64,000 nt of DNA. It comes from an uncultured Smithella sp. Lineage in GTDB: Bacteria > Desulfobacterota > Syntrophia > Syntrophales > Smithellaceae. A model generated the notes under the pieces. That model saw nothing but the letters and a program-made list of their open reading frames with translations. It searched no databases and was not told the DNA's origin. The DNA is taken from positions 12,413 through 76,412 of the forward strand of contig CAZIJZ010000004.1 of the NCBI GenBank assembly GCA_964539765.1, in the 5' to 3' direction. The position numbers were made by a program, and so were the translations under genes. How positions within the stretch are numbered: the first letter of the stretch is position 1; each line of letters opens with the position of its first letter. This document shows positions 8,607 to 63,994 of this stretch, one piece after another.

Positions 8607-8648
8607 ACAAAAAACAAAAGCCATTTGTTCATCCGTAAAAGCATGATG

Positions 8649-8680: not shown

Positions 8681-8921
8681 TATGCTTTCGGATAAAACCG
8701 CAGCATCGAGCGATCGATTGATTGTTGTTGCCCCTGCTTGAACATAAAAGGCCGGGTGCGGGCAAAACCGTTATTATTCAACATTGATGATCAGCACTCT
8801 TTCCTGTTCATACTTTTCTGATAGCCACTTCTTGCAGGCCTGGTTCATATATCGATGAACCATAAAAGGTTGACATATATTTTCGATTATATTAATTGTA
8901 CGAATATCCCGAGAGAAAGAT

Positions 8922-9332: not shown

Positions 9333-9409
9333 TTTCTAAAACCGAATCAGCAGCCGGGAAAATCGCATGATCCACGATGGTTAATCAATACGGACAACAA
9401 GGTGAAAAA

Positions 9410-10465: not shown

Positions 10466-10467
10466 AG

Positions 10468-28155: not shown

Positions 28156-28184
28156 TTGACAATGATTGGGTGTCTGTTTAGTAT
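28156..28184 (+). promoter_or_regulatory. Sigma70-type promoter of the TetR/RND operon (TTGACA 28156-28161, 17 nt, TAGTAT 28179-28184)
   Basis: Consensus -35 and a good -10 with 17-nt spacing. A short inverted repeat CTGAG-N6-CTCAG lies just downstream and is a possible operator. Confidence 0.55.
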
Positions 28185-28266
28185 TCCTGAGCAAACACTC
28201 AGCATGGGATATCATTTTCAGGACATTAATTTTCTCATTTATGCTCGAATTTTCGGGAATCTCCAG

Positions 28267-28881: not shown

Positions 28882-28915
28882 GCAATATTTTCATGATCTA
28901 TAAAAGAGGTGCCTG

Positions 28916-30112: not shown

Positions 30113-30124
30113 CGGGAGCAACTG

Positions 30125-33298: not shown

Positions 33299-33299
33299 T

Positions 33300-34712: not shown

Positions 34713-34726
34713 GAAAGGATTGTCCC

Positions 34727-35776
34727 ATGAGCAAAAGACTGCTGCCGCTTGCCGTTGTGATTCTTGCGATTGTATTTGCACCGCAGATATCTTGCGCATC
34801 TGATCACAAAGCGCGCAGGGCCGATACCTTTACTTTTTACATGGAGAATGATCTCTTTGAGAACCTGGACCGCTACTACACCCACGGAACAAAATTCTCC
34901 TGGATTTCCCGGGATCTTTCAAACTACCGGGAGATCACATCCATCCCGCACTGGATGCAGGGCCTCATCGAAAAGGTTCCTCTGATCAATGATCCCCAAC
35001 AACAGCATTCGGTTTCCGTATCCTTTGGACAGAGCATCTACACACCCGAAGACAAAAAGAAAAAGAGACTGATCAGGGATGACCGCCCCTATGCCGGCGT
35101 CACTTACCTGGGATTCGGTCTGCACAGCAGAAATACAGAGCACATGGACACTTTGGAACTGGGCGTCGGCATCGTCGGACGTCATTCCTACGCGGAAGAT
35201 ATCCAGACTAAAATTCACGAATGGACGGATTCCGAAATCGCCAGGGGCTGGAAAAATCAACTCCGCGACGAACCTGTTCTGAACCTGTATTTCGAGCGGA
35301 AATGGAGAATGCTGCAATTAAAAAGTTCTTCCGGTTTTGGCCTGGACTTTATCCCTCACACCGGCCTGGCCCTGGGAAACGCTTTTACAGGCGCCAATAT
35401 TGGCGGTCAGGTGCGTTTCGGCTGGAACGTCCCGAACGATTTCGGAACGTATCTGATCCGTCCGGGCTCCGACAGCAGCGCCCCCCTGGACGATACGGAC
35501 CCGCGTTTCTTTGCGCCCCTGCACCGTTTCGGCATGCACGTTTTCTTCGCGGCCGACGGAAAAGCTGTCGCCCATAATATTCTGTTTGACGGAAACACGT
35601 TCCGCGACAGTCACAGCGTCGAAAAAGAATCTTTCGTCGCCGAATTCATCGGCGGCCTGGGCATGATCATTCACCGGGTCAAAATCACCTACTCTTACGT
35701 TCACCGCACAAAAGAATTTGAAAAACAAAAAGATGCTCAGCATTTTGGAGCACTCGCGCTTTCCTTCACCTTTTAA
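34727..35776 (+). CDS. Outer-membrane lipid A deacylase, LpxR (DUF2219) family
   Basis: Signal peptide. MENDLFENLDRYYTHGTKFSW and DDRPYAGVTYLG motifs typical of DUF2219/LpxR, with a beta-barrel-like alternating pattern ending in F. Starts 14 nt after the OMF stop. Confidence 0.65.
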   Translation: MSKRLLPLAVVILAIVFAPQISCASDHKARRADTFTFYMENDLFENLDRYYTHGTKFSWISRDLSNYREITSIPHWMQGLIEKVPLINDPQQQHSVSVSFGQSIYTPEDKKKKRLIRDDRPYAGVTYLGFGLHSRNTEHMDTLELGVGIVGRHSYAEDIQTKIHEWTDSEIARGWKNQLRDEPVLNLYFERKWRMLQLKSSSGFGLDFIPHTGLALGNAFTGANIGGQVRFGWNVPNDFGTYLIRPGSDSSAPLDDTDPRFFAPLHRFGMHVFFAADGKAVAHNILFDGNTFRDSHSVEKESFVAEFIGGLGMIIHRVKITYSYVHRTKEFEKQKDAQHFGALALSFTF

Positions 35777-51290: not shown

Positions 51291-52058
51291 TCATTGGGGC
51301 GGCATGCGCAGCGCACCGTCCAGCCGGATGCAACAGCCGTTGAGCATCGTGTTCTCAATGATATGCAACACCATGCGGGCAAACTCCACCGGGTTCCCCA
51401 AACGTTTCGGAAAAGGAACCATTTGGGCCATGCCTTCCTTGACCGCCAAGGGCAATCCGGCCATCATCGGCGTATCGAAAATGCCCGGAGCGACTGTGAC
51501 AATCCTTATGCCATAATCGGCAATTTCGCGCGCAATGGGCAGCGTCATTCCGACAATACCGGCCTTGGAAGCGCTATAGGCAACCTGGCCTACCTGTCCC
51601 TCAAATGCCGCGATCGACGCGGAGTTGACAATCACGCCTTTTTCTCCTTCTTCGCCGGGAGTATTTTTCATCATCTGCTCCACTGCCAACCTGATCACGT
51701 TGAGCGTTCCCACCAGATTAATTTGCAGAACTTTATTGAAAGCTTCCAAGGGCAGAGGTCCTTTTCTACCGACGAGTTTCCCGGGATTAACAACCCCGGC
51801 GCAGTTCACCACCACATTTATTTTACCGAAAGTTTCAACAGTTTGTTGTATAACCTGTCTGACCTCCGTTTCGCTGGTTATATCCGTTTTCACAAATATG
51901 GCATTGCGGCCAATTACCCCTGCCAGTTTTTCGCCTTTTTCCGCATCGACATCGATGATGACAACTTTGGCGCCTTTTTTAGTCAGTTCCTGAATGCAAG
52001 CTTCACCCAGTCCCGAAGCGCCTCCTGTCACGAATGCCACGACATCCCGATGATTCAT
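51291..52058 (-). CDS. 3-hydroxyacyl-CoA dehydrogenase type 2 (HSD17B10-like SDR)
   Basis: 255 aa. VTGGASGLG, NCAG, AAFEGQVGQVAYSASKAGIVGMTLPIARE and NGCCIRLDGALRM are colinear with HSD10 from memory. Confidence 0.85.
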   Translation of the reverse strand: MNHRDVVAFVTGGASGLGEACIQELTKKGAKVVIIDVDAEKGEKLAGVIGRNAIFVKTDITSETEVRQVIQQTVETFGKINVVVNCAGVVNPGKLVGRKGPLPLEAFNKVLQINLVGTLNVIRLAVEQMMKNTPGEEGEKGVIVNSASIAAFEGQVGQVAYSASKAGIVGMTLPIAREIADYGIRIVTVAPGIFDTPMMAGLPLAVKEGMAQMVPFPKRLGNPVEFARMVLHIIENTMLNGCCIRLDGALRMPPQ

Positions 52059-52108: not shown

Positions 52109-53497
52109 TCATTCTGTTCTCTTCACCGCGTTGGCTGCGGGTTTTATCATTTCCTTTTTTATTCTTTTGATAAACTCGCGGCGAAAAACGGGGGTTTTCG
52201 TCAGCAACACCAGTGTGCTGTTGATCAGCCGCCATTTGTAATATTTTTGAGGAAAATTATACATTCCGTGTTCTTTGTAATACCGGTGATCGGCCTGGAA
52301 AACAACCCGCAGCCTCCCGAAAATAGCGTCCCGAAATAACTTGGTTCCCGCGACCTGATAGAATGTCGGCGGCTGGATATAGTCCAGTTGACTCTGCAAG
52401 ACGGAACTTGAAGCCATCGTCTGCAGAGCGGCATTGATTTCAGATGCGTTCACCAGATCATCACTGACAAAACCGGCCAGATTGCAATGTTGCATTTCAA
52501 TGGAGGCTTTCATAATTTCTCGAAGATTGGCCATCTGATTGAGCGACCCGGCAATAACCAATCCGATCTGTTTGCCCATTAACGCGGGTGTATGACCATT
52601 GAAAAAACTGCGGTCAAAAAAACATTTCCAGAGCGACGAAAGATAACGGTCGTGAACGGCACCGGCGATAAACAAAATGTCCGCTGGCTTAACTGTGTTA
52701 TTATAAAAATCAATATAGCCGTCTTTACCTTCGTAAACGCAGACGTTATCAAAGCCACACTGCATACAGCCGATACAGCCGCCTTTGATATCAACATCCT
52801 TCAGTTGCACCAGTTCGGCGGCAGGAGAAAAGGTCTTTTGCAATCTTTCCACCATTTTCTGAAGGTTGGAATTTGCCGCAAGATCATCCGCCACGATTAA
52901 GACTTTTTTACCGGCCACATCCACAGGGTGAATCGCCTCCGCTTCAAAAACAACTTCCGGCGTGACCAGCGGTTTGTAGCTTCTGATCGCCGGCGTTTCT
53001 TCCTTGATCGCTTTCAGAAACAATTCGCCGAAAGTTTTCAGTCGGCGGCGTTCTCTGACTTTCAGCAGATCATTCATTTCCGCCGAATAGGAACCGAAAT
53101 AATTCATTGCCAGATCGTCGCAGACGGCATGGATATAATTATGGGCCGTATAGTCAAAGAAATTGATGGACGTTGTCAAACAGGCCGCCGGTTTGCCGTG
53201 AAAAGCGGAAACGGCGTTTTTTTCGAAAATTAATTCAATAAATCTTTTATACTGCGAACAAACCAGCAGAAAATAAAGCGGGAACGCCCAGAACACCGCA
53301 TCCGCGGCGGCCACTTCAGCGATGACCTCCTGAAAAGCCCCGTCGTCATTCTCCAGCTTTTTAATTTTCAACGCCACGTCAAAAATTTTAAATTCCGTTT
53401 CCGGAAATCTCTGCTGCAGGAAACGGACATACTGCATGGTAACGCTGACGTCACCTTTCGGCGAACCGTTTAAAACGGCGATTTTCATACTTGTCAC
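52109..53497 (-). CDS. Tandem flavodoxin-like-fold NAD(P)H-dependent oxidoreductase family protein
   Basis: 462 aa. N-terminal MKIAVLNGSPKGDVSVT (FMN-reductase-like), a second similar module KKVLIVADDLAANSN..., and the Cys cluster GGCIGCMQCGFDNVC. Confidence 0.6.
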   Translation of the reverse strand: MTSMKIAVLNGSPKGDVSVTMQYVRFLQQRFPETEFKIFDVALKIKKLENDDGAFQEVIAEVAAADAVFWAFPLYFLLVCSQYKRFIELIFEKNAVSAFHGKPAACLTTSINFFDYTAHNYIHAVCDDLAMNYFGSYSAEMNDLLKVRERRRLKTFGELFLKAIKEETPAIRSYKPLVTPEVVFEAEAIHPVDVAGKKVLIVADDLAANSNLQKMVERLQKTFSPAAELVQLKDVDIKGGCIGCMQCGFDNVCVYEGKDGYIDFYNNTVKPADILFIAGAVHDRYLSSLWKCFFDRSFFNGHTPALMGKQIGLVIAGSLNQMANLREIMKASIEMQHCNLAGFVSDDLVNASEINAALQTMASSSVLQSQLDYIQPPTFYQVAGTKLFRDAIFGRLRVVFQADHRYYKEHGMYNFPQKYYKWRLINSTLVLLTKTPVFRREFIKRIKKEMIKPAANAVKRTE

Positions 53498-53602: not shown

Positions 53603-53797
53603 TTACCTGTTCGTGTTCACTCCGATTTTTGTATAAAGGGGACAGTAACCGCTTACCACGCTGGAAAGAAGCGATCCGCTGATAATCAGCAACAATCCCG
53701 CGACGCCCGGAAGCATCCCCCCCAGATACGCTATAATAATAATAAAAGCGACAACGGCCCTTATCCCTTTGTCAACCGTGCCCATATTTTTTTCCAT
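53603..53797 (-). CDS. DUF2892 (YgaP-like) small membrane protein
   Basis: 64 aa. VDKGIRAVVAFIIIIAYL...LLLIISGSLLSSVVSGYCPLY is the typical DUF2892 pattern. GGAGG RBS. Confidence 0.7.
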   Translation of the reverse strand: MEKNMGTVDKGIRAVVAFIIIIAYLGGMLPGVAGLLLIISGSLLSSVVSGYCPLYTKIGVNTNR

Positions 53798-54228
53798 GTC
53801 CCCTCCTCTTTCTGGTCTCTGTTTTCTTGTTTTTCTCGAAATTCATGGATCATTATTCCGCGTTGTTTAGTGCTTTTCTGCTTGTGCTGCGATGCAATGT
53901 AATCCGCAATTTTTCTGATTGCTTCCGCCGGTGTATTGACGAATTCAACTCCGGCATCATAAGCTTCGCCCTCACAGATGACTTTGATCCACTTCACTTT
54001 CCCCATGGCGGTGATCATCTGTTGAAGGTTTTTTAATTTAAAATCTATCTTGAGAAGGGTATCGATCGGCAAAAATATATTGGAATGAACGCTGGTTCCT
54101 GATTCCGAAATATCCTTACTAGTGTTGTAAATAACTTTTTCCCGGAGAAACTTTTTGCCTCCGGCAATCAGGGTGATGGTCACCTCATTTTCTTCCGTCA
54201 GGCGCTTCGCTTTTCTTTTATCGTTCAT
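53761..54228 (-). CDS. PilZ-domain protein (putative c-di-GMP receptor)
   Basis: 155 aa. RKAKR (RxxxR) followed by DISESG (D-x-S-x-x-G) at the canonical spacing. Its 3-prime end overlaps the DUF2892 gene by 37 nt. Confidence 0.7.
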   Translation of the reverse strand: MNDKRKAKRLTEENEVTITLIAGGKKFLREKVIYNTSKDISESGTSVHSNIFLPIDTLLKIDFKLKNLQQMITAMGKVKWIKVICEGEAYDAGVEFVNTPAEAIRKIADYIASQHKQKSTKQRGIMIHEFREKQENRDQKEEGTWKKIWARLTKG

Positions 54229-54348: not shown

Positions 54349-54625
54349 GTGAGACTCTCTGATAATGAGACCCAAGCTTCAGAAACGAAGTGAACTGAAG
54401 CTTGCTGGACGAATTATACCGGGCACGTCGTGACGCGGTAAAACGAGCTTAGCGAAGTTTGAAGAGTTAGTCGAACTATCCCCTGAACGCAGTGAATGGG
54501 GATGTGAGACTCTCTGATAGTGAGACAAGCCGAAGACAAATGCAATGAAGTTTGAGGCGTAAGTCGAACTATAGCGGGCACGTTGTGCCGTGGTGAAACG
54601 AGCGCAGTGAAGTTTTCAGCTGGTT
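54349..54625. repeat. Structured tandem repeat: two units of about 155 nt, each built from shorter sub-repeats
   Basis: GTGAGACTCTCTGATA(A/G)TGAGAC occurs at 54349 and 54504. GAAGTTTGA.G.GT.AGTCGAACTAT occurs three times (two close copies plus a more divergent one at about 54398). CGGGCACGT.GTG.CG.GGT.AAACGAGC occurs twice. Located between the PPTase stop and the PilZ gene. Confidence 0.8.
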
Positions 54626-55285
54626 TCATTGAAAGGCATACGCAACGAAACGGCCGTCATGGCTCAGGCTGACGTCGAGGTCTGTTTCTTTTCCGCAGAT
54701 GCAAACTCGCGGCGGCAGAAGCTCTCCTTGTTGTTTTCTTCGTTTGATTTTTATTTGATGGGAATTCAGGGCAAAATGTTCTGCCAGACTTTTTACAAGG
54801 CATTGACGCGAAAAAAGCGATGGGCAGGTTCCTTCATCCGGCAGGGTTTCAACGTTCCAGATTAATTTATCCAGCGTTGCTTTATCATCAGAACCGGCGC
54901 AATGAATGTAGTCGGAACCGGAGAAAAGGCGGATAAAGACGCCGTCTTTTCCCAGTATTCCGACTTCCCCTTCCGCGTATCCCGACTTCGTTTTTTTAAA
55001 AACCGCCGGCCACCGCCCCGGAACAAAGGCGATCGCTGGAAATAATTTTTTGATGACTTTATAAGCGGTTTCCTTGCAGGCCCAGAACGACCAAAGCGCG
55101 GCATCAGGATTTTCAGCGTTTTTCACGTATTCAATTTCAGCATCTGTGAGGATTTTTCTTAGAAAGCGCGAATCTCCGCTTTTGCCCGTATTCGCCGCTT
55201 CCCGCAAATCCACCACATCGTTCCCGACGTGAGGCAAAATAGTTCTCCTCCATTTTCGCAAGTCTGTCAATGATCTGCGTGGCAT
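54626..55285 (-). CDS. 4-prime-phosphopantetheinyl transferase (Sfp-type)
   Basis: VGNDVVDL..., WSFWACKETAYKV (W/F-x-x-KE-x-x-K motif), DVSLSHDGRFVAYA. There is an alternative TTG start at 55237 with GGAGGAG 7 nt upstream. Confidence 0.75.
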   Translation of the reverse strand: MPRRSLTDLRKWRRTILPHVGNDVVDLREAANTGKSGDSRFLRKILTDAEIEYVKNAENPDAALWSFWACKETAYKVIKKLFPAIAFVPGRWPAVFKKTKSGYAEGEVGILGKDGVFIRLFSGSDYIHCAGSDDKATLDKLIWNVETLPDEGTCPSLFSRQCLVKSLAEHFALNSHQIKIKRRKQQGELLPPRVCICGKETDLDVSLSHDGRFVAYAFQ

Positions 55286-55961
55286 ATTCCCGTTGTGCCC
55301 TCAATTCGCTACCTTGGGCGGGTTGCGGTGTGAAGATTTCTATCTGTACTGAAAATTTCTCGCGCCAGGCGGGAATGATGCTGTAATGATCCTGCTTGTC
55401 GCCCCGCAGATACAGGCACATCACTTTGCAGTTCTCCACGTTCTTAATAAAACGTCCGACCCCGTAAGAGAAGCCTTCTTGATCTACTCTTCCGGTACGG
55501 GAGCGCTTGCCTTCGGGGAAAATCATGATCGTTTCTCCGCTTCTCAAAAGGTAAGCGCATTTGTCGAGAGACGCTTTCATCTTCTCACGAGCGCCGCCAC
55601 GGTTTATGGGAATGCACTTCGAAAGATAACACAATATGGTCAGAAAAATATTATCTTTGTAGTTAGTCCATTCGGGCAGATTCCAGGGCATTTTTTTATA
55701 ATGAATGATATGCTGGCCAAGATTGAACATGGCATAGCTCAAAATAAAAGAATCTATCATGGTTAAATGATTGGAACAGATAATCCATCCGCCTTTGTGC
55801 TTTCCAAATTCAGCGGCACACAGGCTTCGAATTTCTTTCAAATTCCTGACCCGGTAAAAGAAAACTTTTGCGGCAAAAAAATACAGAGGCGCAATGATTA
55901 ATATGGCAATGCGTCCGACAATTTTTTGCAAATACAAAAGTATTCGGGCTTTCTTACTCAT
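55137..55961 (-). CDS. Lysophospholipid/1-acylglycerol-3-phosphate acyltransferase family (PlsC-like)
   Basis: 274 aa. N-terminal TM helix, HX4D box NHLTMID and the FPEGKRSRTG box. Its 3-prime end overlaps the PPTase ORF by 100-149 nt. Confidence 0.8.
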   Translation of the reverse strand: MSKKARILLYLQKIVGRIAILIIAPLYFFAAKVFFYRVRNLKEIRSLCAAEFGKHKGGWIICSNHLTMIDSFILSYAMFNLGQHIIHYKKMPWNLPEWTNYKDNIFLTILCYLSKCIPINRGGAREKMKASLDKCAYLLRSGETIMIFPEGKRSRTGRVDQEGFSYGVGRFIKNVENCKVMCLYLRGDKQDHYSIIPAWREKFSVQIEIFTPQPAQGSELRAQREYATQIIDRLAKMEENYFASRRERCGGFAGSGEYGQKRRFALSKKNPHRC

Positions 55962-55964
55962 CTT

Positions 55965-56213
55965 TTACCCAAGCTTTTGTTTGATGATTCTGACGGCGTC
56001 GCCGATGGTGCGAATTTTATCAGCCTCATCGTCATCCACGCTAATGCCGTAAACGTCTTCACATTTTATAATGACATCAACCAGACGCGCCGAGTTTACT
56101 TTCAAATCATTTAAAATATGCGTGTCCAGTGTCGCCGTTGCCAAAAGATCCTGGTTCTTGGCGTATGGTCTTAAAATGTTAATCATTTCTTCCAAAATTT
56201 TCTTGTCATCCAT
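55965..56213 (-). CDS. Acyl carrier protein
   Basis: 82 aa. DLKVNSARLVDVIIKCEDVYG with Ser at the phosphopantetheine attachment position. Acidic helical protein. Confidence 0.8.
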   Translation of the reverse strand: MDDKKILEEMINILRPYAKNQDLLATATLDTHILNDLKVNSARLVDVIIKCEDVYGISVDDDEADKIRTIGDAVRIIKQKLG

Positions 56214-56238
56214 AAAGCAATTTCTCCTTCACTATGTA

Positions 56239-57519
56239 TTATTTTTCTTCCCATTTTTTAAATATGATGCAGCTGTTGACATCGCCGAAACCAAAACCGG
56301 CTTTTGCGATTATTTTCATTTCAGGAAATTCCAGACATTTTTGCGGAATCTTTGGCGCGAATTTTACGATATCGGGATGCACATCCTCGCTGTTCATGGA
56401 CGGATGCACAAATCCCTTATAAAGTTCAAGAGCAACGGCAACACATTCGATGGCCCCGGCAGCTCCCAGGCAATGACCGACCAGTGATTTGGTGGACTGA
56501 ATATAGGGGAAATTTTCCGGAGTCCTCTCCAGCGCTTCCGCCCAGTTTCTTACCTCGTGAGGATCGGCATAGGTTGCCGTCAGATGTCCGTTAATGGCGT
56601 CAATTTCCGCGGGATCAATACCCGCATCGGCTACCGCGCCGCGAATGCATCTTTTCACCCCTTCCGGATTGGGCGCCGTCATGGAACCGCCCATTCTCTG
56701 GCCGCCGCAGTTAACGTAGCCACCAAGTATTTCAGCATAAATGCGTGCGCCTCTTTCTATCGCTGTTTCCAGTTCTTCCAGGACAAGCATGGCTCCGCCG
56801 GAACCGGGAACAAAACCGGCCGCTGTAGCGCTGAGCGGGCGCGAACCGGCCGCGGGATTGTCGTTGAATTTACGGCAAAGCACGCGCATGGCATCGAATC
56901 CTCCCCAGATGTAAGGCGTTGCGCCTTCGGATCCGCCGGCCACCATACGTTTGGCCAGTCCCGTTCTGATTCTCCACATGGCATCAATGATGGCTTCATT
57001 GCCGGTGGAGCAAGCCGAAGAGTTCGACGTTACTTGATTGCCGGTAGCCAGTAAACCGGAGATGCGCGCGCTGGTTCCGCTGCTCATGACCTGTTCGACA
57101 ATGCGGCTGCCTAATCTCCTGACCTTGCCTTCATTAATCACCGGGACTATGGTATTGGCTATCGTGTCCATGCCGCCGATTCCCGAACCGGCAATGACCC
57201 CGGTATCCCAGTCTACGGAATCATCATCATCGCTTTTCAGATTAAATCCGGCGTCCTTCCAGGCGTCCACCGCGGAAACAGAGGCATAACCGATATTGTC
57301 ATTTATGGATAAAAGTTTTTCCCGGTCGAAATAACTTGATCTGATCTCATCAAAATTTTCCGGGACACCGGCAATCTGACAGCCGAAGTTCAATTCCTTC
57401 AGTTGCGGGATAAAACGAATCCCGGAAACTCCTTCTCTAATGGCTTTCTCAAAACTATCCAGACCGTGCGCATTAGGAGCGGCGACTCCCATGCCTGTAA
57501 TGACAATTCTTTTTTTCAT
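56239..57519 (-). CDS. fabF: Beta-ketoacyl-ACP synthase I/II family
   Basis: 426 aa. ITGMGVAAPN, active-site SSACSTG, INGHLTAT and KSLVGHCLGAAG. Confidence 0.85.
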   Translation of the reverse strand: MKKRIVITGMGVAAPNAHGLDSFEKAIREGVSGIRFIPQLKELNFGCQIAGVPENFDEIRSSYFDREKLLSINDNIGYASVSAVDAWKDAGFNLKSDDDDSVDWDTGVIAGSGIGGMDTIANTIVPVINEGKVRRLGSRIVEQVMSSGTSARISGLLATGNQVTSNSSACSTGNEAIIDAMWRIRTGLAKRMVAGGSEGATPYIWGGFDAMRVLCRKFNDNPAAGSRPLSATAAGFVPGSGGAMLVLEELETAIERGARIYAEILGGYVNCGGQRMGGSMTAPNPEGVKRCIRGAVADAGIDPAEIDAINGHLTATYADPHEVRNWAEALERTPENFPYIQSTKSLVGHCLGAAGAIECVAVALELYKGFVHPSMNSEDVHPDIVKFAPKIPQKCLEFPEMKIIAKAGFGFGDVNSCIIFKKWEEK

Positions 57520-57986
57520 TGATCAACCCCCACTCCCGATAATTCCCCTCTGCAAATTATTTCGCCGTTTTCCTTTTCCATGGAAACACTGGCTTTGATG
57601 GTAATTTTACGAAAATAAATTTTTTTCGCTTTGACGATAACCCTTTCCCCCGGTTTCACAATCTGTTTGAACTCCACGCTGTCGGCCAGAGCGAACAGGC
57701 TGATCGGCATTTTCATTGCTCCGGGCCGCATATTTTTCTGACGCGACAGAAGATATATCCCGAAAGCGACAACGCCGATCTGCGCCATCGTTTCAATCAG
57801 AATAACGCCCGGCGTTATGGGATTGCCGGGGAAATGCCCGCGATAAAAATATTCGTCTTCGCGAAAACGGTAAGCCCCGACGATCTGTTCATCATCCAGG
57901 CTGATAATTTCATCAATAAAACGGAACGGCTCCTGCTGCGGCACAAGCCGCAGAACTTCCTGTTTCAGGCTTGCGTCAGCCTCCAT
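57516..57986 (-). CDS. fabZ: FabA/FabZ-type hotdog 3-hydroxyacyl-ACP dehydratase
   Basis: LVPQQEPFRFIDEI...YFYRGHFPGNPITPGVILIETMAQ. Start set at ATG 57986 (GGAGG upstream), overlapping the KR stop. The track start 58085 would overlap the KR gene by 110 nt. Confidence 0.8.
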   Translation of the reverse strand: MEADASLKQEVLRLVPQQEPFRFIDEIISLDDEQIVGAYRFREDEYFYRGHFPGNPITPGVILIETMAQIGVVAFGIYLLSRQKNMRPGAMKMPISLFALADSVEFKQIVKPGERVIVKAKKIYFRKITIKASVSMEKENGEIICRGELSGVGVDQ

Positions 57987-58707
57987 AAAGACCTCCGTTG
58001 ACGTGGATGACCGAACCGTTGATGTAACTTCCCTTTTTCGCCAGAAAGGCGACAACTTCAGCAACTTCCTCCGGCTTGCCGACACGCCCCAGAAGAATTT
58101 CTTCTGTGGCTTTATTTTTTATTTCCTCCGGCAGTTCTTTCGTCATTTCCGTGTCAATGAAACCGGGAGCCACGGAGTTAACCAGAATGTTTCTTCCTTT
58201 CATCTCCCGGGCCAGCGATTTGGTAAAGGCGTCCAGTGCCGCTTTTTCCATCGTGTAGGGAATCTGTCCGGCATTGCCTGTATGACCGACAACGCTGGAA
58301 ATATTGATGATACGACCGGCGGAACTCCGAATCATGAATTGTCGCAAAACCTTTTTGGTCAGATACCAGACGCCCCGCATCAACGACCTTTGCGCATCGA
58401 ACTGTTCCACCTTCATGGAAATAATATCAGCGTTAATGGAATGGCCGGCGTTATTCACCAGCACATCAATACGCCCTGCGGTATCTTTAATCTTGCCGAT
58501 CATCGCGTCCACCTGCTCAATATTGGACAAGTCGGCCTGAACTAAAAATCCTTCTTTTATCTCATCCAGCAACTGCTGAGCGTTCGCGGCACTTTGATGA
58601 TAATGGATACCGACATGAAATCCTTCAACGGCCAGAGCACGACAACACGCGGCGCCTATGCCTTTGGCACCTCCTGTAACCAATGCCACCGGTTTTTCAA
58701 TCATCAT
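57976..58707 (-). CDS. fabG: 3-oxoacyl-ACP reductase (SDR)
   Basis: 243 aa. VTGGAKGIG, NNAG, YTMEKAALDAFTKSLA, HVNGGLY. Confidence 0.85.
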   Translation of the reverse strand: MMIEKPVALVTGGAKGIGAACCRALAVEGFHVGIHYHQSAANAQQLLDEIKEGFLVQADLSNIEQVDAMIGKIKDTAGRIDVLVNNAGHSINADIISMKVEQFDAQRSLMRGVWYLTKKVLRQFMIRSSAGRIINISSVVGHTGNAGQIPYTMEKAALDAFTKSLAREMKGRNILVNSVAPGFIDTEMTKELPEEIKNKATEEILLGRVGKPEEVAEVVAFLAKKGSYINGSVIHVNGGLYGG

Positions 58708-59693
58708 TTATCCTCCACTTTCAGCATGGCGTAAGCCCAGGCCAGTCCGGCGCCGACAATCACCATGGCAATATTGTCTCCCGGCTGAATTTTATCCCAG
58801 TTCATACTTAACACCGCCGGAGCGCCGCAACAGCCGACATTCCCGAACTGATCAACATTGTACCAGTGGTTTTCGGGTTTTATGCCTCTTCGCTCGCATA
58901 CTGTTTTAAGCATCATGTAATTGGCCTGATGGGCAATGAAAATAAAACGCTTGGCTTCAGCCTCATATTGATCCTGAAGCGTTTTAAGACATTCCGTTGT
59001 TGTTCTGATGGCAAAACCCTGAACGGCGTTGCCATCCTGGCTGAAAACCCAATCTCCGGTGACACCGACTTTTGCCCAACCCGAAGGACGGGCATCGAAT
59101 TCACTGCTGATGAAAGCAGCTCGCGCGGGCATTGTTGCCGAAACTATCGCCGCTGATGCGCCGTCACCGAACAGCACCGCCGAATTGCGATCAGTATAAT
59201 TAATCACTTTTGTTGTTGATTCCGCTCCGACAAGAAGAATGTAAGGCGGCAGCATCTCCGGCTGCATGCGTCGCAGAAAATTGATCTGCGTGCCGAAAGT
59301 TGAACAGGCGGAATTCAAGTCAAAACAGGGCACTTCAATTCCCAGCTCCGCGGCAACCGCTGAAGCCTCCGCGGGCGTAATATTATCCGGCGATGAAGAG
59401 CCGGAAATAAGAAGTCCGATATCCTCCGGTTTCAATCCGGCGCGCTCCAGCGCCATCCGTGCCGCTTTGGCCGACATTTGGGAATTTGTATACTGCCTGA
59501 CTGCAAATGCTTCAAAGGGATTAACGTTTTTTGTCCGCCGGACATAGTCCAGCGGAAGAACTGTGCGGCGGTTTTGAATTCCAACGCGCTCCATAATCCA
59601 TTGTTCGGTTGTGCCGATATCGAGCTCTTCCAGAAGTTTATTGGAAAGAACATTTTCGGGGTGAAAGTGCCCCATGGCATGAAGATAAAGCAT
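58704..59693 (-). CDS. fabH: Beta-ketoacyl-ACP synthase III family
   Basis: 329 aa. The Cys-His-Asn triad context NSACSTF, AHQAN and FGNVGCCG. Confidence 0.8.
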   Translation of the reverse strand: MLYLHAMGHFHPENVLSNKLLEELDIGTTEQWIMERVGIQNRRTVLPLDYVRRTKNVNPFEAFAVRQYTNSQMSAKAARMALERAGLKPEDIGLLISGSSSPDNITPAEASAVAAELGIEVPCFDLNSACSTFGTQINFLRRMQPEMLPPYILLVGAESTTKVINYTDRNSAVLFGDGASAAIVSATMPARAAFISSEFDARPSGWAKVGVTGDWVFSQDGNAVQGFAIRTTTECLKTLQDQYEAEAKRFIFIAHQANYMMLKTVCERRGIKPENHWYNVDQFGNVGCCGAPAVLSMNWDKIQPGDNIAMVIVGAGLAWAYAMLKVEDK

Positions 59694-59695
59694 TT

Positions 59696-60895
59696 TTAAA
59701 CAATCTCCCGTCCTATAATCATATTCTGAACTTCCCGGACACCTTCATAAATATCGATAATGTGAGCGTCACGCGCAAGTTTGGAAATTTCATACTCATT
59801 AGTAAAACCATAGCCTCCGTGCAGATGCAGGCCTTCCGTCGCACAGAAGACCGCTGCTTCGGCGGCAGTGTTCTTCGCCAGCGACGCGTAAATGCCGGCG
59901 TCTTTGGCTTTTTCCTGGATTTTAAAAATTGCCTTGAACAGAGCCATCTCGGCCAATTCAACTTTTTTCCACATGGTGGTCAGCATCTCCCGGGCCACCG
60001 GCAAATCACAAATCCGGCTGCCGAACTGTTTGCGTTCCCGTGTATATTCCAGCGTCACATCGAAGGCTCTTTTGGCCAGCCCCAGACCAATCGCCGCCAC
60101 CATCGGGCGGGCGTAATCCAGAACGTCAATAATGTATTTGAAACCCAGGCGTCTGTCGCCAATGATCTGATTCGGCGTAATAACGACGTCCTCAAATGTC
60201 ACGCTGGCTGTGTTGGAAAGTCTCTGCCCCAGCTTGTCCTCGGGTTTGCCGATGACGATTTTTCCACCGGCGGGAACGTTTATTTCTCTGGGAGAGGTTC
60301 CGATATCAGGAATGTCGGCGGAAGTGGCGTGATCAACCGGAATGACAACGCAGGCCATGAAATTGCCCGTCGGTTTGCCTGTTTTGCAAACCACAGTGAA
60401 CTGCGAGGCGTAGGAAGCATTCGTAATAAAACATTTCGAACCATTTAAAACATAGTTCCCGTCGTCTCTTTTACTGATAAAGGTGGTCATCATCGAATTA
60501 TCCGACCCGGCATTGGGTTCCGTCAGACAAAAAGAGGCCAGGATCGGCTTTTCAACAAAGGGCCCTAAAAATAATGTCCTCTGTTCATCCGTGCCATGCA
60601 GGCCGATGACCACATTGGCCAGGTCGTTGCACATGGCTGACGTGGAGATACCCGTGTCGCCGTAGGAAAGTTCCTCAACAATCAGGGCGGACGTAAACAG
60701 ATCAATTTCGTAACCCCGAACTGACTCGGGAATGCACAAGTTTATCAGACCGGTTTTCCAGGCCTTGTTGATAATCTCCCAGGGGAAGACATGCTCCTTT
60801 TCCATTTCCAGAATACACGGTGTAATTTCATTTTTGACAAATTTGCGAACAGTATCCAGATAGGATAACTGGCTCTCATTGAGACTGAAATCCAT
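59696..60895 (-). CDS. Acyl-CoA (or acyl-ACP) dehydrogenase
   Basis: 399 aa. CLTEPNAGSD, NGSKCFITNA, and the C-terminal DIYEGVREVQ catalytic-Glu context. Confidence 0.9.
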   Translation of the reverse strand: MDFSLNESQLSYLDTVRKFVKNEITPCILEMEKEHVFPWEIINKAWKTGLINLCIPESVRGYEIDLFTSALIVEELSYGDTGISTSAMCNDLANVVIGLHGTDEQRTLFLGPFVEKPILASFCLTEPNAGSDNSMMTTFISKRDDGNYVLNGSKCFITNASYASQFTVVCKTGKPTGNFMACVVIPVDHATSADIPDIGTSPREINVPAGGKIVIGKPEDKLGQRLSNTASVTFEDVVITPNQIIGDRRLGFKYIIDVLDYARPMVAAIGLGLAKRAFDVTLEYTRERKQFGSRICDLPVAREMLTTMWKKVELAEMALFKAIFKIQEKAKDAGIYASLAKNTAAEAAVFCATEGLHLHGGYGFTNEYEISKLARDAHIIDIYEGVREVQNMIIGREIV

Positions 60896-61002
60896 AATTA
60901 AACCTTTTGCTGCTTTTATTTTTTTAGAGATGAGTTTTTAAAAAACTCCTTTAATGAAAAAATATCTCTTCAAAAAAGGAGTTTATTTCTATTTCAATAT
61001 TT

Positions 61003-62448
61003 CTAAGCGACCGCGCCTTTTTTGCGGGCATTTTCATCACCCGTGGTCTTGGGCAGTTCAATGCCATACTTCGTCTGTAAAAATTTCGTCATGGTTGCCG
61101 GATATAAAATATAGGCCAGCACATCTTCATCGCTGCGGGCCAGCTCGCCCATGGCTTTCTTTGCCGCTTCGATTTCCGGTTCCAGATAATCAGCCGGTCT
61201 TCCGGATACCGGTTCCTGCCCGCGCTTGTAGTTCTTCAGTATTTTTTTGGTCAGTTCAGCATCAATCGGCATCGGGGTTTTCCCGTACAACCCCAAAACC
61301 AGATCCTTGAGCTGATTGGACACTCTCACATAACGTCCGAAAAGAACATTGAGCACCGCCTGCGCACCGATAATCTGCGAAACAGGTGTGACCAGCGGAG
61401 GCGACCCCATGTCTTTTCGTGTCTGGACGACTTCTTTGTAAATTTCACCCAGTCTGTCCAACGCGTTCATTTCTTTGAGCTGACCGGTGAGGTTGGAAAT
61501 CATACCGCCGGGAATCTGATGAGCCAGAACACCGTTATCGATAATCGAAAGTTTATGCGTGGCCAGATGGCAGTTATATTTCGGAGCGATGGCTTCCAAA
61601 TGCTCGCCCAGCGCAAGCAGTTTGTACAGATCAATGCCTGTATCGTGCGCTGTGCCTCTGAGGGCGGCGACAATCGGCTCAATGGCGGGCATCGACGTTC
61701 TGAGCGCGAAAGGCGCCAGACACGTATCCACCACGTCAACCCCTGCTTCTATCGCTTTTAAATACGTCATGGAAGCCATACCGCTGGTGTAGTGAGAATG
61801 CAGATGCAACGGCAGTTTAATTTCTTTCTTAATGGCCGTCACCAGATCATAGGCATCGAAAGGAGACATAATGCCACCCATGTCTTTGATGCAAATGGCA
61901 TCCGCGCCCATCCGCTCCAGTTCTTTGGCTTTCCGGACAAAATATTCCAGATTATAAACTTCTCCGCCTAGACGGATATCCGTGAGCGAATAGCAAACGG
62001 CTCCCTGAAAGATCTTGCCGTTAGCCTTGATTCTTTCCGCGCAGGATTCCATATTGCGAAAATCATTTAAAGCGTCGAAACAGCGGAACACATCAATGCC
62101 GATTTCGCAGGCCTTATCCACAAAAGCGCGCACAACATCATCAGCGTAGTGACGGTAACCGACCAGATTCTGGCCGCGGATCAGCATGGCGAAAGGCGTT
62201 TTTTTGATATATTTTTTGAGAATTCTCGGACGCATCCAGGGATCTTCTCCCAGGAATCTGTGCATGGTGTCAAACGTCGCGCCGCCCCAGACTTCCATCG
62301 CATGGAAACCACAGCTGTCCATCTCTTCGGCGATGGGAATCATGTCTTCCGTTTTCATTCTGGTGGCGTAAATCGACTGATGACCGTCCCGGAAGGTGTT
62401 ATCCTGAATTTTCAGCGGACTGTTTTTTATATTGTTATCATGGATCAA
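61003..62448 (-). CDS. Carboxyltransferase of the PycB / OadA / transcarboxylase-5S type, without a biotinyl domain
   Basis: 481 aa. IQDNTFRDGHQSIYATRMKTEDM...MEVWGGATFD...HLHSHYTSGMA. The C-terminus ends in ...KTTGDENARKKGAVA with no AMKM biotinylation motif. Confidence 0.8.
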   Translation of the reverse strand: MIHDNNIKNSPLKIQDNTFRDGHQSIYATRMKTEDMIPIAEEMDSCGFHAMEVWGGATFDTMHRFLGEDPWMRPRILKKYIKKTPFAMLIRGQNLVGYRHYADDVVRAFVDKACEIGIDVFRCFDALNDFRNMESCAERIKANGKIFQGAVCYSLTDIRLGGEVYNLEYFVRKAKELERMGADAICIKDMGGIMSPFDAYDLVTAIKKEIKLPLHLHSHYTSGMASMTYLKAIEAGVDVVDTCLAPFALRTSMPAIEPIVAALRGTAHDTGIDLYKLLALGEHLEAIAPKYNCHLATHKLSIIDNGVLAHQIPGGMISNLTGQLKEMNALDRLGEIYKEVVQTRKDMGSPPLVTPVSQIIGAQAVLNVLFGRYVRVSNQLKDLVLGLYGKTPMPIDAELTKKILKNYKRGQEPVSGRPADYLEPEIEAAKKAMGELARSDEDVLAYILYPATMTKFLQTKYGIELPKTTGDENARKKGAVA

Positions 62449-62493
62449 GATATGTACTCCTTTGCGATCATAAACCGCATTCTTTTCAGTTCA

Positions 62494-63444
62494 TTAATTC
62501 GTTGCCCTAAAAATTTTCTCTGCCGCGTTAAGGCCTGTAATGGATTGGCAGGTAACCCCTATCGACTTAAAAAAGTCGCGCAAGGGTCTGCCCGGTCCCA
62601 CTTCGTAAATATCTGCGGCTTTTTCCGCCAGGCTCTGCATATTTTTACGCCAGTTCACGGTATGGCTGATCTGGTTGACAAGATTTCGTTTTACTTCGGC
62701 AACATCATCCGCATGAAAACCACCGGTAAAATTTGAGGTGACGCGGGTTGCGTTTACCGGATTAAGATGATTGCCGAATTTTTCCAGCGTTTCTGAAAAA
62801 CGGCCCTCGATGGTTTTCATCAACGTGCTATGGAAGGGAGCGCTGACATTCAAACGTATGAAACGAAAACTTTTCCCCGTCGGAAAATTTTCCGTTAGAC
62901 GCTTTTCCGCTTCGTCGATAGCCGGGAGTTCTCCGCTGATCACAATCTGATTGGCGGAATTGATATTAGCAATGCCGGCATTTAAACCGCCCATGGTTCT
63001 GCCCAGCACGTCCATATCGATGTTTTCCGAAATGACGGCTGCCATACCGCCGACACCGACCGGCACGGCTTCCTGCATCAAACGGCCGCGTGTCTGAACT
63101 ATTTTTACGGTGTCAGCCAGAGGCATCACACCGGCAGCAACCAGCGCCGTAAATTCTCCCAGCGAATGACCGCCGAAATAATCGGGCTCAAAACCGTAAC
63201 GTTCAGCCAATCCGCACAGCATGCATATCTCCGTTGTTACAATGCAGGGTTGGGTAAATTCGGTAAGATTAAGTTTTTCATCTTCGCCGAAACACATCGC
63301 GGCAACATCCCAGCCCAGAGCATCGGCCGCTTCTTCAAACGTCCGGCGGCAGACAGGAATCTGTTCATAAAAATCTTTTCCCATGCCGGGCCTCTGCGAA
63401 CCCTGACCGGGGAAAACAATCGCTATATTTTTACCATCCCTCAT
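62494..63444 (-). CDS. fabD: Malonyl-CoA:ACP transacylase
   Basis: 316 aa. IVFPGQGSQRPGMG, GHSLGEFTALV, and a later SAPFHS. Confidence 0.9.
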   Translation of the reverse strand: MRDGKNIAIVFPGQGSQRPGMGKDFYEQIPVCRRTFEEAADALGWDVAAMCFGEDEKLNLTEFTQPCIVTTEICMLCGLAERYGFEPDYFGGHSLGEFTALVAAGVMPLADTVKIVQTRGRLMQEAVPVGVGGMAAVISENIDMDVLGRTMGGLNAGIANINSANQIVISGELPAIDEAEKRLTENFPTGKSFRFIRLNVSAPFHSTLMKTIEGRFSETLEKFGNHLNPVNATRVTSNFTGGFHADDVAEVKRNLVNQISHTVNWRKNMQSLAEKAADIYEVGPGRPLRDFFKSIGVTCQSITGLNAAEKIFRATN

Positions 63445-63709
63445 TTAGACAGTTATTTCCTTTCTTTATTTTTTGTTAATGTACAGCAAAATATATGCAA
63501 TAACAATATAAAGTGTTTTAAAAAGAAGCACAATCCATGCCGCAGAGGCATTATAAATTCCGGCATTACATCAAGCTGTATTTACTGTGTATTTTACAAC
63601 GACCCGGAAAAATAAAACCGAAGGATCAGGGATTGAGTGCGTAAAATACTTCACACCGCGAACAGAAGTTTACCGCGGCCATTCAATAAGAATTGCCACC
63701 GGAATTCAT

Positions 63710-63994
63710 TTAACGCAGTTCCACTTTTTTATTTGCCGGAATTCTCTTGGTTTCCTCAGAATTACTGTCTTTTTGGTTTTGATTACAAGAGGCCATGCAT
63801 TTATCAAATTGAGCTTCGCAGCGCCTCCAGTCAGCGTACCTGTTCCGGCAGACCTGCATATTGTCATCACAGGATTTTATGCATGGAGCGGAATTGTTTT
63901 CCTCCGCAATGGCAGTTCCGGAAATGGGGAAAGCCAATCCGCCGAGAATCAATACGGCAGCAACAATAAAGAAATAATTTCTCAAAAGACTCAT
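63710..63994 (-). CDS. Small secreted Cys-rich protein, function unknown
   Basis: 94 aa. Signal peptide ...GTAIA, then six Cys residues in CIKSCDDNMQVCRNRYADWRRCEAQFDKCMASC. Confidence 0.55.
   Translation of the reverse strand: MSLLRNYFFIVAAVLILGGLAFPISGTAIAEENNSAPCIKSCDDNMQVCRNRYADWRRCEAQFDKCMASCNQNQKDSNSEETKRIPANKKVELR

Follow-up and report, generated by a model that had tools for sequence, protein, structure and literature searches.

The subject of this study is a group of ten genes on the minus strand of a 64,000-nucleotide stretch of DNA from an uncultured Smithella sp. (hereafter the window), spanning positions 54,626 to 63,444. The comparative analysis presented here suggests that these genes constitute a conditionally expressed and largely self-contained auxiliary type II fatty acid synthesis (FAS) system, coupled to its own lipid acyltransferase, in which a flavoenzyme of the acyl-CoA dehydrogenase (ACAD) family likely acts as the enoyl reductase. 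Taken in its entirety, this reading of the sequence is, in our judgement, evenly poised between being right and being wrong, and its separate components are graded below as the evidence for each of them is given. The genes of the operon, in the order of transcription, are as follows.

62494..63444, minus strand: FabD-like malonyl-CoA:acyl carrier protein (ACP) transacylase (316 aa; Pfam Acyl_transf_1)
61003..62448, minus strand: biotin-less carboxyltransferase of the OadA-alpha / PycB / transcarboxylase-5S type (481 aa); optional member
59696..60895, minus strand: ACAD-family flavoenzyme, candidate enoyl-ACP reductase (399 aa; three ACAD Pfam domains)
58704..59693, minus strand: FabH-like beta-ketoacyl-ACP synthase III (KASIII; 329 aa; Pfam ACP_syn_III and ACP_syn_III_C); optional member
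57976..58707, minus strand: FabG-type 3-ketoacyl-ACP reductase (KR; 243 aa)
57516..57986, minus strand: FabZ-type 3-hydroxyacyl-ACP dehydratase of the hotdog family (DH; 156 aa; Pfam FabA-like domain)
56239..57519, minus strand: elongating ketosynthase of the KAS I/II type (KS; 426 aa; Pfam ketoacyl-synt N- and C-terminal domains)
55965..56213, minus strand: private ACP (82 aa; Pfam PP-binding, 22 bits)
55137..55961, minus strand: acyltransferase of the lysophospholipid acyltransferase (LPLAT)/glycerol-3-phosphate acyltransferase (GPAT) fold (274 aa; N-terminal membrane helix; Pfam Acyltransferase)
54626..55237, minus strand: dedicated 4'-phosphopantetheinyl transferase (PPTase; 203 aa from a probable TTG start; Pfam ACPS)

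All ten open reading frames (ORFs) were found where a preliminary description of this DNA had placed them, and their domain content, as assigned there, was confirmed with Pfam and NCBIfam for every gene except for the type of the PPTase. From FabD to the PPTase, the intergenic spacings measure 45, 107, 2, -4, -11, -4, 25, 3 and -101 nt, in agreement with the gaps of 0-110 nt or overlaps described earlier. Catalytic motifs are intact in all components, as judged from their translations and from alignments with PDB entries. The FabD-like protein retains the GHSLGE motif, Arg119, His205 and a SAPFHS motif, shares 36% identity with E. coli FabD and scores 244 bits against the TIGR00128 fabD model (cut-off 260.9). 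The Cys130, His255, Asn285 triad is present in the KASIII (25% identity to E. coli FabH; 155 against a cut-off of 292 for the FabH model), as are the Ser138/Tyr151/Lys155 (YxxxK) triad in the KR (40% identity to E. coli FabG; 243 bits against TIGR01830, cut-off 298) and the Cys170, His312, His349 triad in the KS (31% identity to E. coli FabF and 27% to ApeR; 291 bits against TIGR03150 fabF, cut-off 494). In the DH, the frame of which probably starts at 57986 to encode 156 aa instead of 189, the His51/Glu65 motif HFPGNPITPG...LIETMAQ is kept, and FabZ models yield 78-84 bits, below their cut-offs (FabZ 78 versus 155). The serine of the ACP, the predicted phosphopantetheine attachment site, lies within the sequence VNSARL, and the protein shares about 24% identity with E. 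coli AcpP, reaching 38.7 bits against TIGR00517 (cut-off 70.45).

Conservation of the operon and its wider family

A scan of GTDB species representatives identified 476 relatives, of which the best 80 were examined; all 80 are metagenome-assembled genomes (MAGs) of Smithellaceae or Syntrophaceae. By tblastn with the window proteins, the operon is syntenic in 80/80 of these loci, and the arrangement is therefore preserved far beyond what would be expected by chance. The check for conserved synteny proposed in the preliminary description thus has a positive outcome among the best 80 of the 476 relatives. Counting for each gene only those loci in which the contig extends far enough, the conserved core comprises FabD (55/56 loci), the ACAD (61/62), the KR (69/70), the FabZ-type DH, the KS (75/75), the ACP, the LPLAT and the PPTase (59/60). 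The carboxyltransferase, found in 38/57 Smithellaceae loci, and the KASIII, found in 52/65 loci, are optional members, and hence the operon is not the fixed ten-gene unit that it had been taken for. Across Smithellaceae loci, the KS and the ACP are strongly conserved, with 78-99% identity. The sole exception for the core genes is locus L066 (Smithella MAG JBKQWB01, contig 30, positions 5124-10822), a mini-cluster that encodes KS, ACP and LPLAT without PPTase, KR, DH, ACAD or FabD. A full cluster (L014) is found in this MAG as well, and the mini-cluster could be either a second module or the result of bin contamination from another Smithella.

More distant relatives of the acyltransferase, with 33-45% identity, were found in Oligoflexus, Bdellovibrionota, Omnitrophica, Bacteroidetes, Polyangiaceae and Syntrophus MAGs and in further contigs. 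When the contexts of these distant relatives and 80 metagenome loci are considered, a DH-KS-ACP-LPLAT-PPTase core with variable upstream genes recurs, and it is present in Oligoflexus, in an Omnitrophica MAG, in a Bacteroidetes MAG and in metagenome contigs. Several of the clusters from outside the Syntrophales lack FabD, KR or any enoyl reductase, and must therefore cooperate with a housekeeping FAS. A full-text literature search returned no description of the cluster, and a comparative paper on ladderanes is silent on it, which bears out the earlier impression that this gene order does not correspond to any described family.

An acyl-CoA dehydrogenase in the position of the enoyl reductase

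The preliminary description had remarked on the absence of a FabI/K/L/V-type reductase, and this absence holds both for the cluster and for the ORFs of at least 150 aa scanned across the 64-kb window, among which no NMO/FabK or FabV domains were detected. The sole member of the short-chain dehydrogenase/reductase (SDR) family in the cluster is the FabG-type KR, which carries the YxxxK signature and not the Y-x5-8-K dyad. In order to identify what might fill the vacant step, the most informative comparison is with collinear clusters, the fullest form of which reads FabD-X-KASIII-FabA-KR-DH-KS-ACP-LPLAT-PPTase. In five full clusters, slot X is occupied by a FabL-like SDR of 311-323 aa, and the same SDR is found in three shorter clusters. 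In eight clusters from other Syntrophales, slot X instead holds an ACAD orthologue 68-74% identical to the window ACAD; the acyltransferase relatives of one ACAD-type locus (L111) are named Syntrophales. The two enzymes occur together in 0 loci, and no FabL-like orthologue was found in any Smithellaceae locus. The FabL-like SDRs have FabL as their top NCBIfam match, and their Y-x6-K dyad (GYAAVSAAK) aligns to that of B. subtilis FabL (PDB 3oic).

The strongest available argument for enoyl reduction by the ACAD is, therefore, that it sits in the same slot as a Y-x6-K reductase. Based on this comparison, the missing enoyl reductase of the operon appears to be best explained as a non-orthologous replacement by the ACAD. 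A rough neighbour-joining tree of the KS, computed without support values, places the ACAD-type clusters in one clade nested among the FabL-type clusters, and recovers the cluster family as monophyletic, apart from E. coli FabF and from ApeO/ApeR. This topology fits a putative single swap of the SDR reductase for the ACAD in Syntrophales, followed by a later loss of FabA in the clusters of Smithellaceae. That the ACAD is the enoyl reductase of the operon is accordingly, in our assessment, somewhat more probable than improbable, with the direction of the reaction and its substrate being read from gene context, and the enzyme may represent a new kind of enoyl-ACP reductase. Of the roles that the preliminary description had offered for the ACAD, a reverse, enoyl-reducing activity is the one that receives comparative support.

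The N-terminal, middle and C-terminal Pfam domains of the ACAD all score above their cut-offs, its closest PDB match is medium-chain acyl-CoA dehydrogenase (MCAD; 1ege, 244 bits), and the catalytic glutamate, at the position of MCAD Glu376, is kept in the motif IYEGV, which aligns to IYEG(V/T) in 1ege and is invariant in 18 cluster ACADs. A common insertion of about 20 aa, absent from MCAD, is present in 18/18 of these proteins. In NCBIfam, the highest score (251 bits) is obtained with acryloyl-CoA reductase AcrC but does not reach the cut-off. Butyryl-CoA dehydrogenase (Bcd; 1buc, 5ol2, 4l1f; about 200 bits) and caffeyl-CoA reductase CarC (6fah) rank high in the PDB comparison, with about 170-205 bits. 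The fold and the catalytic glutamate are thus shared with ACADs that physiologically reduce enoyl thioesters (Bcd with EtfAB, AcrC and CarC), which is the reaction proposed for the operon enzyme. Those reductases, however, act on catabolic CoA esters and are encoded together with etfAB, whereas the operon ACAD belongs to an ACP-based biosynthetic operon, contains the additional insertion and has no adjacent etf genes.

The same flavoenzyme could alternatively operate as an acyl-ACP dehydrogenase that introduces a 2,3-double bond, releasing a trans-2-enoyl product in the manner of MbtN or, with isomerisation, a cis-3 intermediate in the manner of FabX, while the enoyl reductase is borrowed from a housekeeping FabI, K or V. 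The resemblance to MCAD and the conserved glutamate are in line with oxidation; the known carrier-protein-dependent ACADs (MbtN, PigA/RedW) oxidise rather than reduce, and they appear among the weaker NCBIfam matches of the operon enzyme (37 bits for MbtN and about 160 bits for PigA/RedW). Furthermore, many clusters in other phyla borrow KR, enoyl reductase or FabD in trans, and the in-cluster FabA of the sister clusters is absent in Smithellaceae, leaving a vacancy that a desaturating ACAD might fill. PMC8626469 describes H. pylori FabX as a dehydrogenase that is an integral part of type II FAS and that 'backtracks' on acyl-ACP. MbtN, PigA/RedW and FabX are all flavoenzymes that act on acyl groups tethered to acyl or peptidyl carrier proteins in biosynthetic clusters, and all of them oxidise; the operon ACAD is less similar to MbtN and PigA/RedW than to CoA-dependent ACADs. 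FabX, to our knowledge, does not have the ACAD fold. What weighs against a dehydrogenase is the genomic context, since the same ACAD (68-74% identical) shares an operon with a bona fide FabA in other Syntrophales, which makes it unlikely to be a substitute for FabA or FabX, and since it occupies the exact slot of a Y-x6-K enoyl reductase with which it never co-occurs. A dehydrogenase would also make the Syntrophales clusters the sole ones with FabD and KR but no enoyl reductase. We thus regard this alternative as improbable, if still the most serious of the competitors. Of the two desaturase functions contemplated in the preliminary description, desaturation of the chain, if taken as a substitute for FabA, fits less well for the reason just given, and the preparation of a starter unit fits less well because the ACAD is universal whereas the KASIII is optional.

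The FabL-like SDRs are of interest in their own right. They were located at L091 4692-5627, L089 6949-7920 and L087 4935-5882, as well as in L106, L112, L130, L131 and L092, and present an extra insertion of about 60 aa together with scores of 112-129 bits against a FabL cut-off of 328. They may constitute an undescribed subclass of SDR enoyl-ACP reductases tied to ACP-LPLAT-PPTase clusters outside the Syntrophales.

Regulation by a sigma-54-type promoter

Two putative regulatory elements were identified upstream of FabD.

63527..63542, minus strand: sigma-54-type promoter CGGCATGGATTGTGCT (GG-N10-GC), 83 nt upstream of the FabD ATG
63638..63662, minus strand: palindrome-like element TTCGCGGTGTGAAGTATTTTACGCA, candidate binding site of an enhancer-binding protein

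An Rfam scan of the window gave no matches, a generic promoter and terminator scan of 51-64 kb returned counts equal to the shuffle expectation, and a window-wide search for the sigma-54 pattern with two mismatches gave 27 matches versus 31.6 expected. The sigma-54 signal emerged only with a strict motif (TGGCA[CT]-N5-NTGC[ATC]) that was anchored upstream of FabD across relatives. The strict motif is present 74-107 nt upstream of FabD in 47/55 Smithellaceae loci, against a background of 0.0069 per 320 nt, and in 16/16 ACAD-type metagenome loci versus 0/8 FabL-type loci. The second element, with the consensus [AG]TG[TC]GAA-N4-8-T[TA][TC][AG]C[AG], is present in 44/49 Smithellaceae upstream regions (background 0.004 per 170 nt), where it keeps a fixed distance of -114 or -134 nt to the promoter, TGCGAA...TTCGCA palindromes of a similar kind occur in other Syntrophales loci, and a conserved AT-rich block separates the palindrome from the promoter. 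Candidate regulators are encoded close by in relatives: in 7/7 other-Syntrophales loci, FabD is directly preceded by a divergent gene for a seven-transmembrane (7TM) histidine kinase, accompanied in 5/7 of them by an NtrC-type activator with a Sigma54_activat domain, and the kinase is also found in 15 deeper Smithellaceae loci. The promoter, the palindrome and the two-component system point to conditional expression, which would not be that of a housekeeping FAS.

The KS-ACP-LPLAT mini-cluster of L066 likewise has a 7TM kinase and a sigma-54 activator divergently adjacent to it. The divergent gene pair beside the clusters of other Syntrophales had also been considered as a source of acetyl-CoA carboxylase subunits; this assignment was ruled out, the two genes being the histidine kinase and the sigma-54 activator.

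A probable auxiliary rather than housekeeping system

In order to determine how closely the operon approaches a canonical FAS, its components were compared with NCBIfam housekeeping equivalog models (FabD, FabH, FabG, FabZ, FabF, AcpP), the cut-offs of which were missed by every component. The NSARL motif of the ACP is unlike the DSLD helix II of AcpP-type proteins. An E. coli AcpP query gave no tblastn match at 1e-3 in the window or in the 176 loci, and canonical fab genes were absent from the 64-kb window as well as from the flanking regions of 173 loci. Elsewhere in the window (28156-35776), a TetR regulator, a resistance-nodulation-division (RND) efflux pump (membrane fusion protein, AcrB-type transporter and outer membrane efflux protein) and a homologue of the lipid A 3'-O-deacylase LpxR lie in a row, and the LpxR homologue is evidence for lipid A, and for a capacity to remodel it, in this organism.

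These data bear on whether the operon could be a divergent sole housekeeping FAS II of Smithellaceae, with PlsC-like and AcpS-like genes co-located. Its catalytic set is complete (FabD, KR, DH, KS, ACP, acyltransferase and PPTase), none of the Smithellaceae species representatives examined lacks it, the conservation of its KS and ACP is high, and no canonical fab gene lies nearby, all of which would be expected of such a system. The near-universal AcpP is, nonetheless, needed by LpxA/D, LipB and other enzymes, and the carrier encoded here, in an organism with lipid A machinery, is unlike it (24% identity to AcpP). Together with the activator-dependent promoter, next to which a sensor kinase and an activator are encoded in relatives, and with the sub-threshold equivalog scores, this argues that the operon is not the housekeeping FAS. 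The KASIII and the carboxyltransferase, moreover, come and go, homologous modules in other phyla that lack FabD, KR or enoyl reductase coexist with another FAS, and one MAG holds the full cluster in addition to the KS-ACP-LPLAT mini-cluster. A housekeeping role is hence very improbable, and it is highly probable, on the strength of these sequence comparisons, that the operon specifies an auxiliary FAS feeding an LPLAT. The earlier proposal of a dedicated FAS-like system, distinct from the canonical fab genes, that works on a private carrier protein and comes with a PPTase and a GPAT/LPLAT-fold acyltransferase for its own use, is upheld. Its corollary that a special acyl chain is built does not follow, as sister clusters contain FabA and an ordinary enoyl reductase, a toolkit for normal saturated and monounsaturated chains.

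Relative to the E. coli type II FAS (plsX-fabH-fabD-fabG-acpP-fabF, fabZ/fabA and fabI, with PlsC and AcpS), the operon draws on the same enzyme families with the same catalytic residues for loading, priming, condensation, keto-reduction and dehydration, on a phosphopantetheinylated ACP and on an HX4D acyltransferase as the exit enzyme. Unlike the E. coli system, it has an ACAD in the slot of the enoyl reductase and no FabI, K, L or V, its ACP is not AcpP-like, and it includes the acyltransferase and the PPTase together with a linked biotin-less carboxyltransferase, a sigma-54 promoter and a two-component regulator. An auxiliary system of comparable design is the rhizobial AcpXL cluster (acpXL-fabZXL-fabF2XL-fabF1XL-adhA2XL-lpxXL), in which cluster-encoded FabZ- and FabF-type enzymes build a very-long-chain fatty acid on a private ACP and an in-cluster acyltransferase passes it to a membrane lipid, the missing steps being obtained from the housekeeping FAS. 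LpxXL belongs to the lipid A lauroyl/myristoyl-acyltransferase family and not to PF01553, the family of the operon enzyme, and we know of no PPTase, FabD, ACAD, carboxyltransferase or sigma-54 link in the rhizobial cluster.

The acyltransferase, the PPTase and the class of product

The HX4D motif (NHLTMID) and the FPEG motif of the acyltransferase are invariant in 56 sequences. The enzyme belongs to a small and distinct subfamily, since a search of 1.84 billion sequences recovered only 496 representatives at E <= 1e-3, and its homologues are encoded by MAGs named Smithella, Syntrophaceae or Deltaproteobacteria. A sequence search of the PDB produced no match. An AlphaFold2 model was obtained (mean pLDDT 86), the best structural matches of which are human GPAT1 (8e4y), mycobacterial PatA (7ojt) and squash GPAT (1k30), with E = 5e-5 to 2e-4 and TM scores of about 0.4-0.47. 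The predicted structure confirms a GPAT/LPLAT fold; candidate acceptors are glycerol-3-phosphate, a lyso-lipid or a glycolipid.

The frames of the acyltransferase and the PPTase share 101 nt (55137-55237). The overlap appears to be real, since the length of 274 aa is kept by the acyltransferase in more than 100 homologue clusters. On contigs L001 and L002, the gene caller left out the acyltransferase because of its overlap with the PPTase. For the latter, the most likely start is the TTG at 55237, yielding 203 aa and not 219 aa. The preliminary description had called this enzyme an Sfp-type PPTase. Sfp-type enzymes are pseudo-dimeric proteins of about 230 aa that resemble Sfp, AcpT or EntD and have their catalytic motifs in the C-terminal half; here, the Pfam ACPS domain spans residues 4-64 and contains the GNDVVD and WACKETAYK motifs (GxD, W..KE..K), placing the catalytic half at the N-terminus. 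The sole PDB match is AcpS (3qmn, E = 0.14), so that the protein has an AcpS-like look and the former label is not supported.

A private ACP next to an LPLAT-family enzyme also calls to mind the aryl polyene (APE) clusters, in which a private ACP, KS, KR and hotdog DH are combined with an LPLAT-family enzyme (about 273 aa) whose presumed task is to attach the product to a lipid (PMC8253772). The operon might correspondingly be a highly reducing type II polyketide synthase (PKS) of the aryl-polyene/flexirubin kind that works without enoyl reduction, its private ACP carrying a polyene or another multiply unsaturated chain, its LPLAT anchoring that chain to a lipid and its ACAD tailoring the chain or the starter. 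This would account for the lack of a canonical enoyl reductase in the cluster, and it agrees with the general design shared with the apeA-R genes of E. coli CFT073. In addition, no other named protein in the comparison comes as close to the LPLAT as ApeD does (24% identity, E = 2e-8), the match to E. coli PlsC not being significant, and a Polyketide_cyc2 gene adjoins the LPLAT in one Bacteroidetes relative. Precomputed Pfam matches of the DH include ApeP-like and ApeI-like entries, but a direct Pfam scan returns ApeI-like at just E = 0.04. APE membership on the grounds of these matches was ruled out, given that the operon proteins have no particular affinity to the CFT073 APE proteins save for the weak similarity of the LPLAT to ApeD.

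The remaining evidence runs against a polyene product. The operon has a single elongating KS, with its active-site cysteine, and neither within it nor next to it is there a chain-length factor (ApeC), an AMP-ligase (ApeH-type acyl-ACP synthetase), an ammonia lyase, a thioesterase, a glycosyltransferase, a LolA/LolB-like protein, a DUF3261 protein or an MMPL exporter; a second ACP is also missing. Conversely, the APE cluster has no counterpart to the FabD, the KASIII, the ACAD and the PPTase of the operon. The similarity of the KS and the KR to ApeR and ApeQ does not exceed that to E. coli FabF and FabG, and the FabA and FabL-like enoyl reductase of the sister clusters make up a fatty acid toolkit. 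A polyene-forming PKS is consequently quite unlikely. Other classes of product fare no better. The KASIII scores 38.5 bits against DarB (cut-off 550), matches of FabD and KS to PfaA are at the domain level only (98 and 41 bits versus 1010), and no multidomain PKS or Ole genes are present. The operon thus lacks the hallmarks of APE, dialkylresorcinol, polyunsaturated fatty acid and Ole clusters alike, as had been proposed.

The carboxyltransferase

The carboxyltransferase comprises Pfam HMGL-like and PYC_OADA domains without a biotinyl domain, and its PDB matches are PycB (5ks8, 432 bits) and the transcarboxylase 5S subunit (1rqb, 385 bits). It scores below every NCBIfam equivalog cut-off. With transcarboxylase 5S, OadA-alpha and PycB it shares the two-domain architecture and intact metal and carbamylated-lysine motifs (RDGHQS, KDMGG, HLHSH), and the 5S subunit is likewise devoid of a fused biotin carrier. 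Unlike transcarboxylase and Oad, it sits in a FAS-like operon, with no 12S, 1.3S, Oad beta or Oad gamma partners nearby. In Smithellaceae, the gene is placed between FabD and the ACAD, whereas in other Syntrophales it follows the PPTase; it accompanies ACAD-type clusters only, never FabL-type ones. Its recurrence in two different positions, restricted to ACAD-type clusters, argues for a functional link. The enzyme might generate carboxybiotin from oxaloacetate and so provide an ATP-independent malonyl supply, a role read from its family and neighbourhood that we put forward tentatively and consider rather less probable than its opposite.

A model for the operon, and points that weigh against it

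In the proposed model, an enhancer-binding protein would activate the sigma-54 promoter upstream of FabD, the NtrC-type regulator of relatives being paired with the 7TM histidine kinase. The PPTase would convert the private apo-ACP into holo-ACP, which the FabD-like transacylase would load with malonate. The KASIII, where present, would prime the synthesis and the single KAS I/II would elongate the chain, with the FabG-type KR and the FabZ-type DH performing the first two reductive steps. The ACAD would then run in the reductive direction, as do butyryl-CoA dehydrogenase and acryloyl-CoA reductase in anaerobes, drawing its electrons from a flavoprotein partner (of the electron-transfer flavoprotein [ETF] type or similar) and not directly from NAD(P)H. 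The resulting acyl-ACP would be handed over to the membrane-anchored acyltransferase, which would esterify a glycerol-phosphate, a lyso-lipid or a glycolipid, thereby giving rise to a dedicated membrane-lipid pool. The optional carboxyltransferase would move CO2 from oxaloacetate to a biotin carrier, in the ATP-independent half-reaction of transcarboxylase, and could aid the malonyl supply.

Several observations weigh against this model. The mutual exclusivity of ACAD and FabL-like SDR is suggestive but does not amount to statistical proof, since it reflects one phylogenetic event. A housekeeping FabI, K or V could provide the enoyl reductase activity in trans, the cluster contains no ETF genes, and the precedents for carrier-dependent ACADs named above are oxidative. 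We know of no demonstration that an ACAD carries out enoyl-ACP reduction in a type II FAS. With regard to the carboxyltransferase, neither a biotin carrier nor a CoA-side carboxyltransferase is encoded nearby, so that its role is a guess. As for the regulation, the -24 element of the window reads CGGCAT and not TGGCAT, a substitution of C for T also seen in the nearest relative (L007), and the kinase and the activator are not adjacent to the operon in the window or in its own clade. A 2022 review of enoyl-ACP reductase classes lists FabI, K, V, L, L2, I2 and MG and includes no ACAD-type enzyme (PMC9260719).

A bolder version of the model would unite all of its elements, with the ACAD as an eighth class of enoyl-ACP reductase fed by an ETF-like or ferredoxin-linked partner, possibly bifurcating like Bcd/EtfAB, with oxaloacetate rather than ATP driving malonyl carboxylation, and with the 7TM kinase and the sigma-54 activator switching the module on to remodel the membrane lipid. 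This version is speculative, and we think it unlikely to hold in full.

Neighbouring genes

Downstream of the PPTase, two further genes on the same strand may or may not belong to the operon.

52109..53497, minus strand: FMN_red/flavodoxin-fold protein (462 aa; Pfam FMN_red and Flavodoxin_2, N-terminal); membership uncertain
51291..52058, minus strand: type II (HSD10-like) 3-hydroxyacyl-CoA dehydrogenase (PDB 4o5o, E = 3e-87); membership uncertain

The FMN_red gene follows the PPTase in 31/60 Smithellaceae loci. Its product contains a central cysteine motif, CIGCMQCGFDNVC (CxxCxxC...C), has no NCBIfam or PDB match and may be a redox partner of the ACAD. The HSD10-like SDR is found downstream in 43/60 loci; it was evaluated as the missing FabI/FabL-type reductase and ruled out, being an HSD10-type 3-hydroxyacyl-CoA dehydrogenase with a YxxxK dyad.

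Directly downstream of the PPTase stop codon (54349-54615), an element of about 155 bp occurs twice in tandem and in the same orientation; its sub-blocks are 82-96% identical (e.g. GTGAGACTCTCTGATARTGAGAC), and it overlaps a 71-aa ORF without a Pfam match. A 22-mer of this element occurs nowhere else in the window and, among the 176 loci, only in contigs L001 and L002, which come from the same strain. The PPTase and the FMN_red gene are separated by a gene for a PilZ-domain protein (155 aa; 53761-54228), which occupies the same position in only about ten close Smithella relatives and could signify either a link to cyclic di-GMP or a lineage-specific insertion. On the opposite side of the operon, just upstream of the sigma-54 promoter region and on the same strand, a 94-aa cysteine-rich protein with a signal peptide and no Pfam match is encoded (63710-63994), with homologues (30-71% identity) in only about eight close relatives.

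Elsewhere in the window, a fusion of an ADP-forming acetyl-CoA synthetase-like protein with a GNAT domain (42555-45239) is encoded a few kilobases from an AMP-forming acetyl-CoA synthetase (48690-50669; TIGR02188, 972 bits). The fusion has the architecture of Pat-type protein acetyltransferases, and the two genes may form an acetylation-control pair for Acs. PMC4992975 reports that ATP formation in Syntrophus makes use of Acs, which would make such a pair notable.

Implications for enoyl reduction and for lipid synthesis in syntrophs

Enoyl-ACP reduction is the most variable step of bacterial fatty acid synthesis and a major antibiotic target. The known classes of enoyl-ACP reductases are either SDRs (FabI, L, V and variants) or the flavoprotein FabK, and an ACAD-fold enzyme, if the present assignment is true, would be a new class. 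It would also connect lipid synthesis with electron transfer through flavins and ETF in organisms living at the thermodynamic limit, and the linked biotin-less carboxyltransferase offers a concrete hypothesis for an ATP-independent malonyl supply. The regulatory circuit of Syntrophales, consisting of the 7TM kinase, the sigma-54 activator, the palindromic site and the promoter, is complete and testable. Beyond this order, clusters built on the core of private ACP, DH, KS, LPLAT and PPTase form a family that spans several phyla and has apparently not been described before. Among the key syntrophs of methanogenic digesters and of hydrocarbon degradation are Smithella and its relatives, and a conditional membrane-lipid programme of the kind proposed here may bear on the stress physiology of Smithella-type organisms and on their lipid biomarkers.

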